Assembly: GCA_041674705.1 (NCBI GenBank)
Contig: JBAYVF010000003.1
Coordinates: 3,663-67,662, forward strand
DNA length: 64,000 nt
Source: Candidatus Omnitrophota bacterium
GTDB taxonomy: Bacteria > Omnitrophota > Omnitrophia > Omnitrophales > Aquincolibacteriaceae
Direction of reading: 5' to 3'
Shown here: piece after piece, positions 24,001-48,000 of the stretch
Numbering within the stretch: the first letter of the stretch is position 1
Layout: every line of letters begins with the position of its first letter
Program-made: the position numbers

Positions 24001-27000
24001 TTGAGCATTTGTTGTGCGATACATTTTTAAAACCCGACATGAATCTAGAAGATCGCAGCTGGAAGGCAGCCTGTCTTGCCAGGCCATATTTGCGCGACTC
24101 CCGCTTTCAATGCTCACCACGGACGGTTCATAATTCGTAATGATGTCGGATCCTTTCTCGGCTTTTGCCAACGCCTTTTTATAAGAAAAATGTTCCCATC
24201 TTGTCTGAATTAGGGAATGCCTGGCGAAAAAAGCGAAGATCAGGGCAAGCGAGAAAAAAATAATCCTGGTTTTCCATGCGGGGAATTCTTTTCCGAGGTA
24301 TTCCAGGCTGAGGGCCGGGATAAGGCAGATGAAGCAGGCGCTGTAGACCAAGGTGTAATCTAACACCCCGAAAGAAGATAGGGCGATTTTTAAAATCGCA
24401 TCGCCAGTCAAAAACACCATGAGGTAACTCGCCATCGTGAAAGCGCATAAATAGCACGCCAAAAAGATGCAAGGATCAAAAGTTCCCGGTAAATCCTTTT
24501 TGTAAAAAATCGAAATAATTTTTTTTCTGCCAACCAGAAAAATAGCGCACGCTAAAGTGAGAAGCCAAAACTGATGTCCGAAATGGCTCTGGTAATAAGC
24601 AGTGATGCCTCTTAAGTTTGTAGCGATTCTTTGCGGTGCTCCGTCGCCGAAATAAGTGAGTGCGTGTTGTGCGTAAAAAACGATAGCCTCGGCAATATCA
24701 ATGCTTGAATTGACTTTTATTTTACTCGTGTAGGCCATATCGATGGCGTACTGTTCCCAAAAGCCAAATGCTTTTACGGCGATCAACTGGAGAACTCGCA
24801 AGCAGACAAGGGGAAGTGCGGAAAAAAAGGTAATCCTCAAAAGACGTTTTAATGATTCCCGGGTAAATGAAGAAAAATAAAGAGCCAGAAGTCCCGTGAT
24901 CAAGATCATCAAAAGCGTCTGATTTGTTTCGGCCATGGCCGCTAGGCCAAAACAGGCTATTAGTTCGATGTAAAAGCCAGAAGTAAGTTTGTTTGCACTC
25001 GCGATGGTCTGTAGTAGCTTGAGATGCCACACCAGGCATAGGAGGCTTACTGCAATAAAAAGATTTTGCGGCGCAAGAAGAAACGCTTTGAGGGGGAGAA
25101 CGATCGCTAAAAGAAAAACGAGGGTCACCATGTTATTGAAATGCCTGAAACAAAATTTAAAAATGAGCCCAAGCCCGGCGAGGCTTACGGCAAGGCCGAC
25201 AAAAAACAGACTTGATTTGCCGTAAGGAACGAAGGTCTGAACAAAACCGGCAAAGAAATGGACGAGGTCAAGGTTGTGAAAATACAGGAGTGGATGTTCG
25301 GCTTTTGAAAACGAGGTTGACCAATCCCTTAGAAAGAAAAAAGCGCCCGTTTTATCCAGCAAGGCGTTTTTAAAGAAGAGAAGACCCTCGTAGCGAAAGG
25401 GGCAGAAGATGAGGCTTTCAAAGTCGATCTTCCTTGCGATAAAAAAATTGCCGAAGCTGAAAAGGATTGCTAACAAACCAAACAAGATTTTTTTAAAAGA
25501 CATTGTTTTTCTCCGTGAATTAGCAATTCTTCTGCTTACTTTGTAGAAGACTATAGTATAATCTGTCCCCAAGTAAATAAAAAACGACTCATGCTCGGGA
25601 TCGTATGAAGTTGCGCTAAGGGCCGGCGGGACAAAACCATTTTAAAGGATATTCGTGAGTTTGCAAAAACAGCCTTCAAAACATTCCGACTCCAAAAGAA
25701 TCCTTCTACTGAACCTCCCCGCTGAAGGGCAGTGTGCGGATTTTTATACGCCGCGATATGCGATAGACTCCTTTTCCGTCTATCCGCCCCTGGGACTCTT
25801 GTATGTCGCGACCGCGATCAAGGACAGTTATCCTGTAAAAATCATGGATACGGTCGCTTTGAATTATACGATCGCTCAGACGGTCGAAGCTGTTTTTAAC
25901 GAAGCCCCTGCGGTGCTTGGGATTTCATGCCAAACCTTTCGCTTGTTCCCCATGATTGAAATTATCCGAAAAATCAAGTCGCGGCTTCCTGACATCACGG
26001 TTGTGATCGGCGGACCGCACACCTCGATCTATCCTGTGGAAACTCTTCAATTGCCCGGCGTTGACTATGTCATCGTGGGTGATGGCGAGGCCCCATTCAA
26101 GAAATTGCTGGATGTAATTCTGGGAAGAGAAAAAACGGATCTGAAAAACATTCCCGGGCTGGTTTATAAGGAGAACGGAATCGTGTTCCAAAATGAGCGC
26201 GATTACCATACCTCGATCGATGGCATCAAAATACCAGACCGCTCGCTCTTAGACTGCCGGTATTATTATACGGCTGCTGATGAAAAAGAGCAGGTGGTGA
26301 CCATGATTTCGTCCCGCGGGTGCCCTTTTCAATGCATTTTTTGCGATGTTCAGGAGAAAAATTACAGGTGGCGAAGCGCCCAGAGCGTGGTGGATGAGAT
26401 GGAGTATATCGCCAAGAGTTTTGATAATCCCGTGATTCATATCTTTGATGATACTTTTAATTTGATAGAGCAGCGAGTGTTTGAGATTTGCCGGGAAATA
26501 GAGCGGCGCGATTTGAAGGTGAAATGGACAACGAGGGCTCGCGTGCATCCTTTTGGCGAAGAGATGGTGGCCGCAATGAAGAGGGCTGGCTTGAAACGGG
26601 CTCATTTCGGCGTTGAATCCGGATCTGAGATTACGCTGCAGAATATCAAGAAGGGCGTTACTAGAGAACAGACTGTCAAAGCTTTTGAGCTTTGCAGAAA
26701 ATATCAGATCGATTCACTGGCTTATTTTATTATCGGGTTTGACTGGGAAACAAAAAAAGACATAAATGCAACAGTGGCTTTCACGAAAGAAATAGGCGCG
26801 GATTATATCATGGCCAATACGCTTTACCCCGCGGCCAAGACGGTTATCTATGAAGGACTCCTTAAATCCGGGAAGATTCAAAAAGATTTTTGGAAGGAGT
26901 TCGCGTCGGCCCCGATCAAAGATTTTTCTCTTCCTCAATATCGGAACAAGAAAACACTGAGTTACCTTAAACGCAAGCTCGATGAAACTTATCTGACTTT

Positions 27001-45000: not shown

Positions 45001-48000
45001 ATATCGGGGGGATTCCTGAGGTGGTAGTGAACGACGAAGGAGGCTACTGTGTGGATAGCCGAGATGTTGATTCATATGCCCGGTGCATAATCAACCTTTT
45101 GAAAGATAAAAATTTGCGGTTAAAACAAGGGGAAAAAGGCTATGCCAGGTACCGTGCGCATTTTACAGCAGAACGCATGTCTCGTCGGTATGCGGAAATA
45201 ATCCATGAGATTTACGGATGAATAAATTGGGTAGCGGGTTAGACGGCGTTCTTTTATGTTTGTTAAACAACGATTGGGTCTTGTGCCATAACAGGATTAA
45301 CCTTTCCTCGAGGATTGCATGCGATTAAACAAGATTTTGCTTATGGCTCCGCCAGCTTTTACAAAGAAAGGGTCGCAAGACATTAACCCGCTTCCTCCGA
45401 TGGGGCTTGGATATCTTGCATCGATGGCCGAAAGGTTGGGGATGCAAGTGAAAATCCTCGATTGTTTGATGAATGGGTGGGGAAGAGAAGAGTATGTGAA
45501 TGAATCCTTGGTCCGTGTTGGATTGTCGGATAAAGAAATCCGGGAGCAAATAATGCAGTTCCAACCTGACATTATCGGGATTAATTGCCAATTTAGCCGA
45601 CAATACAAAATCTATCATCAAATGTTTTCTTTAATCAAGTCCGTCGATCCAAAAATCATAGTGATCGCCGGCGGAGCCCACGCAACCGTGTGCCCTGAGG
45701 AGGTTCTTAGCGATGATCATTGTGATTATTTGTTGCTGGGCGAAGCGGAGGAGTCTTTCCGTGAATTAATTTTGGCGCTCCAGCGAGATGCTGACATAAC
45801 TGCAATTGATGGCTTAGGCCGGAAGGTTGACGGCAAGTTAGCGATTAATCCAAAACTGGGCTTTATTAAGGATCTTGATTCTTTGCCATTTCCGGCCTAT
45901 CACCTTATGGAGCTGAATAGGTATTTTGGGCTCAATGCGTCTCACGGAGATAGACATAAAAAACGCTTTTGCCCCATTATTACGTCACGCGGATGTCCTG
46001 CCAAATGCACTTTCTGTAGCGCGCTTAAAGTTTGGGGCAACAAATACAGGATGCGGTCGGTGGAGAATGTCCTTGAAGAAATGAAGCTGCTGAAAGACCA
46101 GTATGGCATCGAAGAAATTATGTTTGAAGATGATAATGTAACAGCCGATCCCAAGAGGGCCAAGCTTCTGTTTTCGCGGATGGCTGAGGAGGGACTTGAT
46201 TTTGTTTGGGATACTCCCAATGGCGCTGGAGTGTGGTCTATGGATGAAGAGATGATCGATTTAATGAAGAAATCAGGTTGTGTCAGGCTGCATTTTCCAG
46301 TAGAAAGCGGCTCACAACATGTCCTGAATAGCGTTATTAAGAAGCCTCTGAACTTGGAGAAAGTGAAGAAATTGATAAAACATTGTCAAAAAATCCATCT
46401 TCATCACTCCATGTTTTTAGTGATTGGAATGCCGGGTGAAAAATTGTCGGATATGTGGGAATCATTCGAGTTTGCGGTTGAATGCGGCTGTTATTCGCCG
46501 CACATATCTGTTGCAACGCCTTATCCTGGAACGCAACTATATAATGATTGTGAAGAAAACGGCTTTTTTTCAAGGCCTTATTCATTGGACGACCTTTTTA
46601 TTAGAAGTTTTCTTATCAGCACGCCAGACTGGAACGGAAAAGATTTGAAGAAGATTCTTTTCAAAGGGAACCTTTATCTTAAGCTGCGAGGTGTGCTAGC
46701 TCATCCATCTTTACTAATGGAATACGCTCTCAAGGTAGTGTCGCAACCATCAAGAGTTTTCCGATTCTTCAAACAAGGCTAACAATCGATCGAGTGGTTC
46801 TCTTATGAAAAAACAAAGAATAATTCGTTTGGCCAGATCCATTGTCGATGAGAGAGAAGCCCGAGAGCTTCGACGCGTCCTTCTTGAGGACGGCTATCTC
46901 GGTATGGGGCAGGAAGTTCGTCTGTTTGAGGATGAATTGGGCAAATTCTTTGGCGGGAAGGCCGAGGTGGTCTGTGTTAATTCCGGGACCGCTGCATTGC
47001 ATCTGGCGATCATGGCCGCGGTCAAGCCGAATGAGGAGGTTTTGGTTCCATCCTTTACGTTTGTGGCTTCCTTTCAGGCGATTACGGCCGCCGGCGCAAA
47101 ACCCGTGGCTTGTGATATAGACCCTCTCACGCTGATGCTGGACCTTAAAGATGCTGCCAAGCGTTTGACGAAACGAACGCGGGTTATAATGCCAGTGCAT
47201 TATTCTGGTGCAGTGGGAAATCTTAAGTCGGTTTATGCGTTTGCGAAGGAGCATAAGCTTCGCGTGGTCGAAGATGCCGCTCATGCCTTTGGTACAACAT
47301 ATCAGGGGAAAAGGGTCGGGAGTTTTGGGGATATCACATGTTTCAGTTTTGACGGTATAAAAAATATTACATGCGGCGAGGGCGGGGCTGTGGTGACGCG
47401 CGACAGAAAAATCGCGCAATTCGTGAAGGACGCGCGCCTTTTAGGTGTTCAAAAAGATACCGAAAGGCGTTACGCGGGACAGCGCAGTTGGGAGTTTGAG
47501 GTCGTTCACCAAGGCTATCGTTATCACATGAGCAACCTTTTGGCTGCTATCGGCCGCGTGCAGTTAAATAAATTTTCTGAGTTCGCCGGCGCGCGGCAGT
47601 TTCTTGCAAAAAACTATCAAAAAGAGCTTATCGGCATCCCAGGGATTGAGCTTCTCCCGGTGGATCTCGCTGCCGTAGTTCCGCATATTTTCCCGATCTT
47701 GGTTGTGGAGGGGCGCCGTGATAAGCTTAAGGCCTTTCTGCAGGCGAAGGGCATTGAAACAGGTATTCATTATTATCCTAACCACCGGTTAAAATTTTTC
47801 TCAAAGAAGAACACTCGTTTTCCAACAACCGATAAGATCTACAGCGAAATTTTGAGCCTGCCCCTGCATCCAGGCTTGAATCCGGATGAGCAGAAGCGGG
47901 TTATTGCAATGATACGGAGGTTCTTCCTTTATGAACGCACTCTTTAAGGGTGTTTATTGCGGCAAGCGTGTGCTTGTAACCGGCCATACGGGTTTCAAAG

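Follow-up and report, generated by a model that had tools for sequence, protein, structure and literature searches.

What do three radical S-adenosylmethionine (SAM) genes of the cobalamin type do in one bacterial locus for cell-surface glycan synthesis? The locus lies on contig JBAYVF010000003.1 of a metagenome-assembled genome (MAG) of a Candidatus Omnitrophota bacterium (GCA_041674705.1). The 64,000 nucleotides analyzed here (positions 3,663 to 67,662 of the contig, hereafter the window) are occupied from ~50 to ~59300 by a single long glycan locus, mostly on the plus strand. Class B radical-SAM enzymes are known to tailor antibiotic sugars, and no member acting on a cell-surface glycan or a nonulosonic acid is given in two reviews of the class (PMC9204698, 2022; PMC12931638, 2026). 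The genes in question, referred to as R1, R2 and R3, are the following.

25655..27175, plus strand: R1, class B (B12-binding) radical-SAM protein, 506 amino acids, GTG start
38248..39636, plus strand: R2, class B radical-SAM protein, 462 amino acids
45319..46782, plus strand: R3, class B radical-SAM protein, 487 amino acids

Each of them probably represents a family of its own, tied to one sugar pathway and making an uncharacterised sugar modification. In particular, with a probability of roughly 0.55, we consider R1, R2 and R3 to be three independent cobalamin-type tailoring enzymes, each serving one activated-sugar pathway, with C-methylation as the likeliest chemistry.

Domain organization and family placement

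Open reading frames (ORFs) of the window were annotated by Pfam and NCBIfam profile scans against curated cutoffs. A first-pass annotation of this DNA had described the three ORFs, each with an N-terminal B12-binding domain and a CxxxCxxC motif, and the Pfam scan and a motif search agree with it. The N-terminal PF02310 B12-binding domain is matched in all three proteins with E-values of 1e-18 to 1e-22 (67-80 bits, cutoff 32.1), and PF04055 Radical_SAM with E-values of 1e-20 to 1e-26 (74-93 bits); for R1 the two values are 1.8e-22 and 8.1e-25, respectively. The CxxxCxxC motif, located at residue 223 of R1 (CPFQCIFC), 202 of R2 (CTFTCNFC) and 226 of R3 (CPAKCTFC), is invariant in the alignments of all three families. 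The GGxH motif of the cobalamin domain is found at residue 119 of R1 (GGPH), 95 of R2 (GGHG) and 118 of R3 (GGAH); the DxHxxG motif was not found in the three sequences, and no transmembrane segment is predicted in any of them.

The hexapeptide LPFPAY, earlier pointed out as common to R2 and R3, is indeed present at residues 166 and 189, respectively, and R1 lacks it. At the same site the family consensus is IPFPAY in both the R2 and R3 families and LPxPDR in the R1 family. As the motif is family-wide, and R2 and R3 are only 26% identical, it appears to be a linker motif seen across all three families, with no sign of special kinship between R2 and R3. Pairwise identities among the three proteins are just 26-29%, hence they are not recent duplicates. 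A Cys-rich stretch at the C-terminus of R1 (C489/492/493/498) was considered as an auxiliary cluster and rejected, as it is not kept in the R1 family.

AlphaFold models of R2 (pLDDT 87) and R3 (pLDDT 90.9) both have the class B fold, with Rossmann-like N-terminal beta-alpha repeats. Foldseek aligns them with OxsB, TsrM, TokK, CysS, MgmA and AprD4 (E-values 1e-16 to 1e-24, template modelling (TM) scores 0.62-0.77), AprD4 being the top fold match of R3 (0.72/0.77). The solved class B structures all fit both models about equally, and the fold does not separate a methylase from a dehydratase. Among PDB sequences, AprD4 (6FD2) is again the best match for all three proteins (E-values 1e-15 to 1e-17), followed by TokK, OxsB, MgmA, TsrM and CysS. 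The AprD4 alignments cover the radical-SAM core only, while those with TokK, OxsB and MgmA reach into the N-terminal domain, which favours a real cobalamin site in R1, R2 and R3.

No NCBIfam model reaches its curated cutoff for R1, R2 or R3, and thus none of them can be assigned to a named family. The best models for R1 are BchE (TIGR02026, 168 bits against a cutoff of 481) and HpnJ (TIGR03471, 155 against 578), and for R2 the ladderane-lipid radical-SAM model (TIGR04072, 134 against 360). R3 is closest to the Sden_1168 methyltransferase family (NF038361), yet falls far under its cutoff (294 bits against 575, profile positions 61-481 of 560); R2 and R1 score 103 and 88 bits with this model, and R3 scores 164 bits with HpnJ. 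Taken over the BchE, HpnJ, HpnR (TIGR04367) and ladderane models, the three proteins score 110-168 bits against cutoffs of 360-650. The class B models for ribosomally synthesized and modified peptides (TIGR03975, NF050148) give 88-143 bits against 282-750, and the AprD4 model NF033070 gives 76-87 bits against 500, in the radical-SAM core only. Judging from domains and motifs, membership of R1, R2 and R3 in class B appears established, with no subfamily. The JGI automatic annotation of R2- and R3-family proteins is 'anaerobic magnesium-protoporphyrin IX monomethyl ester cyclase' or 'YgiQ', names that are almost certainly wrong in view of the neighbouring genes and of scores that stay under the cutoffs.

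The R2 family and legionaminic acid clusters

R2 directly follows a legionaminic acid operon.

29363..29391, plus strand: sigma-70 consensus TTGACA-17 nt-TATAAT, 12/12 match in the 390-nt gap before LegB, a consensus match with predicted function
29615..38183, plus strand: complete GDP-linked legionaminic acid pathway, comprising LegB, LegC, NeuC/LegG, NeuB/LegI, NeuD/LegH, a PtmE-like nucleotidyltransferase, a GFO oxidoreductase, a CMP-transferase and a PtmA-like SDR

The full set of the Campylobacter-type CMP-legionaminic pathway (LegB/C/H/G/I/F and PtmE/F/A) is thus encoded upstream of R2. To our knowledge, the described pathway contains no radical-SAM step. Most of the legionaminic acid genes score above their cutoffs (TIGR04180, 522 bits; TIGR04181, 528; TIGR03568, 450; TIGR03569, 455; TIGR03570, 197; PRK09186, 271), and the CMP-transferase scores 146 bits with the PseF model TIGR03584, under the cutoff of 205.7. 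The PtmA-like gene ends at 38183, leaving 64 nt before R2. The consensus at 29363-29391, the sole perfect sigma-70 match in the two regions scanned, is the likely start of the legionaminic acid/R2 transcription unit.

The R2 family is large and conserved in sequence and length. R2 shares 71-77% identity with more than 120 clusters (clustering threshold 90%), nearly all of which are exactly 462 amino acids long, and in a library clustered at 50% identity just two full-length representatives of the family are left (identity 62% or higher), within a superfamily of 45,368 representatives. With one genome searched per GTDB species, relatives are found in at least 232 species, the best 80 of these 232 being 65-74% identical to R2. 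The hosts include Omnitrophota, Nitrospirota, many Desulfobacterota, Planctomycetota, Cyanobacteriota, Actinomycetota, Chloroflexota, Patescibacteria and a firmicute, as well as two archaeal MAGs, one of Promethearchaeota and one of Woesearchaeota. The archaeal genes (L048, Promethearchaeota, 2958-4343; L065, Woesearchaeota, 7616-9001) are 68% identical to R2 and adjoin NeuB and a CMP-transferase, which implies either that the cassette has moved from one domain to the other or that the contigs were mis-binned.

Gene neighbours of R2 homologs were counted within 10 kb in 42 loci with at least 8 kb of sequence on both sides. NeuB is the most frequent of them (34/42), followed by CMP-transferase (33/42), LegB (29/42), LegC (27/42), and NeuC and PtmE (26/42 each). 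For comparison, the ~22 loci examined around R1- or R3-family genes showed no NeuB. The direct neighbour of R2 varies, CMP-transferase being the commonest. In cultured Geomonas silvestris the order is LegB-LegC-NeuC-NeuB-NeuD-PtmE-LegF-R2, while in Desulfoscipio geothermicus, also cultured, the R2 homolog is the first gene of an otherwise canonical legionaminic acid cluster. The gene block between R2 and R3 (39665..45221) is syntenic in L094 and L106; in L106 the TIGR04372 glycosyltransferase comes immediately after the PtmA-like gene and R2 is missing, the remainder being syntenic with the window, and in L094 the R2 homolog occupies a different position. R2 is thus an optional, mobile, single-gene accessory added to a complete legionaminic acid pathway, as expected for a tailoring enzyme. 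Moreover, R2 as well as R3 is strongly conserved across phyla and domains whose glycans must differ, which argues for an invariant small-molecule substrate; for R2, this may be Leg5Ac7Ac, its CMP form or a GDP-linked precursor.

Two candidate partners of R2 were rejected. An obligate pair of R2 and a large downstream glycosyltransferase, suggested by the first three contexts, did not survive a scan of 80 loci: a large ORF lies downstream of the R2 homolog in ~13/67 loci, and a homolog of the TIGR04372 glycosyltransferase is found in 1/42. De novo clustering of ORFs around R2 homologs, in search of a hidden obligate partner, yielded as recurrent just a set of HisH-like, HisF-like and WbuX(PseA)-like genes, identified by reading the sequences and present in 13-16/42 loci (e.g. 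L040, 11418-14175; L090, 13286-13969). None of these is found in the window. The set, associated with N-acetimidoyl/acetamidino groups on amino sugars, is an independent optional tailoring step.

The R3 family, an aminotransferase and a glycosyltransferase

R3 is followed by a block of genes for a CDP-linked hexose.

From 46805, plus strand: DegT aminotransferase (DegT380) with catalytic Lys
From 47931, plus strand: CDP-glucose 4,6-dehydratase
From 49019, plus strand: RmlC-like protein, 155 amino acids
From 49468, plus strand: glucose-1-phosphate cytidylyltransferase
From 50172, plus strand: GT2 glycosyltransferase (GT2b), end of the R3 partner block 46805..51176

The spacer between R3 and the DegT gene is 22 nt. 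DegT380 was considered as a dehydrase of the E1/ColD type, and this was rejected; since the catalytic lysine is kept (SFDGIKN), it appears to be a true aminotransferase.

The R3 family comprises more than 120 clusters at 59-81% identity, with Desulfobaccales, Aminicenantes, Elusimicrobia and Syntrophorhabdaceae among the named sources. Contigs of Aminicenantes and Elusimicrobia have an order like that of the window: R3 homolog, DegT, nucleotidyltransferase, 4,6-dehydratase, RmlC-like protein, GT2. Among 16 non-redundant loci of the family, a DegT380-like gene is found downstream of the R3 homolog in 11, and, where the sequence extends far enough, a GT2b-like gene in 13 of 14. CDP-hexose genes accompany R3 homologs in just 3/16 loci, so the earlier placement of R3 directly upstream of a CDP-hexose module holds for the window, while the constant partners in relatives are DegT and GT2. 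Thus, the core unit is R3 + DegT + GT2, and the nucleotide carrier seems to differ between loci. In four relatives (L004, L094, L096, L101) an SDR also follows the R3 homolog.

R1 and a putative heptose-type module upstream

R1 is the first gene after a divergent gap and is followed by an SDR. The surrounding features are as follows.

From 12228, plus strand: HldE-like kinase/nucleotidyltransferase, domain order reversed
From 13768, plus strand: GmhA-like SIS isomerase
14225-15394, plus strand: radical-SAM/SPASM protein
15352 and 16118, plus strand: split transketolase
From 16651, plus strand: ArnC/PgfS-like GT2
17509-18621, plus strand: radical-SAM/SPASM protein
18666 and 21436, block end 23871, plus strand: two YfhO-type membrane glycosyltransferases
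23815..25572, minus strand: membrane protein of 585 amino acids, ~13 predicted transmembrane segments, no Pfam match, divergent from R1
27192-28178, plus strand: SDR epimerase/dehydratase (Pfam), after R1
28203-28706 and 28703-29224, plus strand: two small membrane proteins (transmembrane prediction), downstream of the SDR

The R1 family is small, with ~29 clusters at 51% identity or more, followed by a fall to ~45%. Neighbours were compared in six loci, and in five of these (L011, L013, L123, L124, L125) R1 homologs also adjoin the genes found upstream in the window, from HldE-like to YfhO. The ORF with 13 transmembrane segments, separated from R1 by an 82-nt divergent spacer, has a homolog in L123 (58% identical), likewise on the minus strand and directly upstream of the R1 homolog. 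The gene similar to the SDR after R1 (SDR328) is 86% identical in L123 and 66% in L124. In L012, L013 and L124 the R1 homologs have counterparts of the two small membrane ORFs beside them, in L012 even though the heptose module is absent. The two SPASM proteins have a tungsten-cofactor maturase model as their best NCBIfam match (75-87 bits against a cutoff of 380), which leaves them unassigned, and their homologs, 53-84% identical, accompany R1 homologs. Not included in the first-pass description, they bring the radical-SAM total of the window, together with R1, R2 and R3, to five.

As R1 homologs travel with the upstream genes and the two small downstream membrane ORFs, R1 closes a ~17-kb module (12228-29224) and belongs with the upstream genes, not with the legionaminic acid genes, from which its unit is separated by the sigma-70 consensus at 29363-29391. 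The module set recurs in Gastranaerophilales, SAR324 and metagenome contigs. Judging by family names, it looks like a pathway in which a nucleotide-activated heptose-type sugar would be remodelled by transketolase and three radical-SAM enzymes and passed via polyprenyl-phosphate to a YfhO-type transferase. This suggests an undescribed, heavily radical-tailored higher-carbon sugar.

Other claims of the first-pass annotation can be revisited here. The 64-nt spacer it gave before R2 is right, as is the divergent gap before R1 (82 nt), and so are its neighbours: the SDR after R1, the legionaminic acid set before R2, and the CDP-hexose genes after R3. The assignment to class B and the link to sugar modules are borne out for all three genes by domains and conserved neighbourhoods. 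Its placement of each gene at the boundary of a sugar sub-operon needs correcting for R1, which is not a boundary gene grouped with the SDR and legionaminic acid genes but goes with the module upstream. A grouping with lipid, pigment, hopanoid or peptide enzymes, or relatives independent of sugar genes, would have spoken against the whole proposal; none of the respective family cutoffs is reached, and the relatives co-occur with sugar genes.

Several class B genes per locus

The presence of three such enzymes in one glycan locus had been considered rare. This is not supported, as members of the R2 family by themselves are spread over at least 232 GTDB species and loci with several class B genes recur; rarity holds only for studied organisms. 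Two or more class B genes are present in 20/64 fetched loci of at least 15 kb and three or more in 7/64, these frequencies being biased, since the loci were fetched around a class B gene. A Thermodesulfovibrionales locus (L009) has four class B genes, and two marine metagenome contigs (L113, L114) have three or four, interleaved with GT2 genes. Several class B genes per locus are thus a recurrent feature in anaerobic, mostly uncultured lineages. In L009, L113 and L114 the three or four genes lie within 12-21 kb, which suggests iterative or combinatorial radical tailoring of glycans.

Comparison with characterized class B enzymes

The B12-binding domain and radical-SAM core of R1-R3 are shared with GenK and GenD1 (gentamicin), Fms7 (fortimicin) and MoeK5 (moenomycin), compared here by description. 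These enzymes modify sugar carbons that are out of reach for ordinary SAM methyltransferases, and next to their genes are found those for aminotransferases and dehydrogenases of the respective sugar pathway (PMC9204698). However, they tailor actinomycete secondary-metabolite antibiotics, whereas the context of R1-R3 is primary cell-surface glycan synthesis, with a nonulosonic acid, a CDP-aminohexose and a heptose/YfhO module as settings, in an Omnitrophota MAG and many anaerobes. Fom3, from fosfomycin synthesis, is a class B methylase that acts on a small molecule in cytidylylated form, to which a CMP- or CDP-linked sugar would be the counterpart; its pathway, unlike those considered here, is a phosphonate one, and the window yielded no phosphonate gene. 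AprD4, from apramycin synthesis, is an aminoglycoside-sugar enzyme with the same two-domain layout and size as R1-R3, but it is described as a cobalamin-independent diol dehydratase, and the sequence alignment is limited to the core. BchE, HpnJ, HpnR and the ladderane enzymes belong to the same superfamily, and R1 and R2 reach their highest generic scores with them, but no pigment, hopanoid or ladderane gene was found near R1-R3 in the window. Sden_1168 (SD_1168) from Shewanella denitrificans, which represents the closest curated family to R3, clusters with GenK, Fms7, Fom3 and MoeK5 in a published similarity network; it was assayed as a P-methyltransferase on a non-native substrate, its physiological role being unknown (PMC9204698).

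Proposed mechanism and alternative explanations

In the proposed mechanism, the [4Fe-4S] cluster would cleave SAM reductively to give a 5'-deoxyadenosyl radical, which would abstract a hydrogen from an unactivated sugar carbon or an N-acyl carbon, and methylcobalamin would then donate a methyl group, as in GenK, Fom3 and MoeK5. This would yield sugars that are C-methylated or carry a lengthened acyl chain. R2 would modify legionaminic acid or its GDP- or CMP-linked precursor. R3 would modify an amino-deoxyhexose from the adjacent DegT aminotransferase, transferred by the adjacent GT2, while R1 would work in a heptose-type pathway with transketolase and the two SPASM enzymes, its product passing through the polyprenyl-phosphate GT2 and YfhO. 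The domain architecture, motifs, fold and conserved gene neighbourhoods are shown by the analysis; from them we infer the substrates, the use of cobalamin and the methyl transfer. Methyl transfer is taken as the likeliest chemistry because the B12-binding domain looks intact, because the nearest curated family of R3 is a methyltransferase family clustering with GenK, Fms7, Fom3 and MoeK5, and because most characterized class B members in PMC9204698 and PMC12931638 are methylases.

Several observations weigh against this proposal. Pfam and NCBIfam scans found no genes for cobalamin synthesis or uptake in the 64-kb window. No window-like sugar gene lies near the R2 homolog in 3/42 loci, and the R3 + GT2 pair occurs without DegT in L105 and L106, so an amino sugar may not be the substrate of R3. 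No description of a C-methylated legionaminic acid was found in the literature searched. Moreover, the best PDB match of all three proteins is a cobalamin-independent diol dehydratase, and methyl transfer is not distinguishable from other radical chemistry by sequence or by fold. We know of no sequence signature that tells methylases from other class B enzymes. BchE, HpnJ and OxsB are characterized members of the class that are not methylases, and reviews describe several such enzymes (PMC9204698, PMC12931638).

These last points lead to the view that the same sugar pathways are served by non-methylating chemistry: dehydration of the AprD4 type, with the keto product then transaminated by DegT or reduced by the SDR, deamination of the DesII type (a 4-amino-4,6-dideoxy sugar), epimerisation, or a ring rearrangement as in OxsB and HpnJ. 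Besides the AprD4 matches, including the top fold match of R3, the placement of an aminotransferase gene after R3, joined in relatives by an SDR, resembles the gene logic of AprD4/AprD3 and DesI/DesII. Yet the AprD4 similarity is confined to the core and its NCBIfam score is low, while the N-terminal domains have strong B12-binding matches, keep GGxH and align with TokK, OxsB and MgmA, and the nearest curated family of R3 is one of methyltransferases. For R2, the pathway is complete without it, and deamination or dehydration of an intermediate would derail it. Hence, we regard non-methylating chemistry as rather unlikely overall, though a possibility especially for R3 with its aminotransferase and SDR neighbours.

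It is more doubtful still that the enzymes act on an assembled or lipid-linked glycan, or on a membrane polyprenyl-phosphate sugar, instead of soluble nucleotide sugars. This would agree with the R3 + GT2 pairs of L105 and L106, which lack DegT and CDP-hexose genes, and with the small membrane proteins flanking R1 homologs even without the heptose module (L012), or together with an ArnC-like GT2 and YfhO, a setting that might place R1 near a polyprenyl-phosphate sugar. However, none of the three proteins has a predicted transmembrane segment, R2 and R3 are 60-77% identical across phyla with necessarily different glycans, and next to R2 there is most often the CMP-transferase or another gene for a soluble pathway enzyme rather than a glycosyltransferase gene. 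A mere co-location of enzymes that are unrelated to sugars and act on lipids, tetrapyrroles or peptides is very improbable. The best NCBIfam models (BchE and HpnJ for R1, the ladderane enzyme for R2), the JGI label of homologs (Mg-protoporphyrin IX monomethyl ester cyclase) and the three R2 loci without recognisable sugar neighbours would fit it, but the scores are 3-4 fold under the cutoffs and many unrelated class B families score alike, while the sugar-gene neighbourhoods are conserved across many phyla. In the window, Pfam and NCBIfam scans identified no gene for peptide maturation, a peptide precursor, tetrapyrroles or hopanoids, though no search aimed at short precursor-peptide ORFs was made.

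Other features of the locus

The locus also encodes a GT9 heptosyltransferase, a Wzx flippase, a protein of the O-antigen-ligase type, an initiating Bac_transf enzyme and many glycosyltransferases. The interval between R2 and R3 contains four genes, annotated by NCBIfam/Pfam except for the third.

From 39665, plus strand: TIGR04372-family glycosyltransferase
From 41163, plus strand: Wzx flippase
From 42784, plus strand: protein of 407 amino acids without assigned function
From 44004, plus strand: GT4 glycosyltransferase, last gene of the interval 39665..45221

The GC content is 42-44% at 20000-26000 (YfhO and unknown genes) and at 40000-46000 (glycosyltransferase and Wzx genes) and 50-51% at 30000-38000 (legionaminic acid operon). 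As the blocks differ in this respect, a mosaic locus with parts of differing origin is suggested. At 2518-4900 the glycan locus contains genes of a three-subunit 2-oxoacid:ferredoxin oxidoreductase (POR_N/PFOR_II, TPP_enzyme_C, POR gamma), which could either provide the radical-SAM enzymes with reduced ferredoxin or have a sugar acid as its substrate; a carbamoyltransferase gene (4952-6793) directly follows. The adjacent paralogues at 7208-8857 and 9093-10658 each combine a GDSL-like acylhydrolase domain with TPR repeats and might be glycan O-acyl esterases or transferases.

Implications for legionaminic acid and other surface sugars

Our literature search found no paper connecting radical SAM with nonulosonic or legionaminic acid, O-antigen or YfhO. 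In Magnetospirillum gryphiswaldense and Methanococcus, a survey of environmental microbes by mass spectrometry has reported rare ulosonic acids of 'higher carbon' number, which may have ten carbons or be variants that mass spectrometry cannot distinguish (PMC8157484). C-methylated legionaminic acid could be the source of such a signal. We propose, tentatively, that the R2 family makes an undescribed and very widespread modification of legionaminic acid, e.g. a C-methylated ten-carbon nonulosonic acid or an N-acyl group longer by one carbon, in more than 200 bacterial and archaeal species, and that R3 and R1 produce two further radical-tailored sugars. The sugar of R1 would then be heptose-derived, made by five enzymes (transketolase, two SPASM and one or two class B enzymes) and exported via polyprenyl-phosphate and YfhO.

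The analysis corrects a widespread automatic annotation of these proteins as Mg-protoporphyrin IX monomethyl ester cyclase or 'YgiQ', and presents the R2 family as a class B enzyme that is a common, horizontally mobile accessory of legionaminic acid clusters in bacteria and archaea. As members of the family are found in organisms already in culture (Geomonas silvestris Red330, Desulfoscipio geothermicus DSM 3669, Desulfobacter curvatus DSM 3379), the question of what R2 does is directly testable. If R2 methylates its sugar, the product would be a new class of sialic-acid-like molecules, with a bearing on phage and immune recognition and on the chemoenzymatic synthesis of modified nonulosonic acids.

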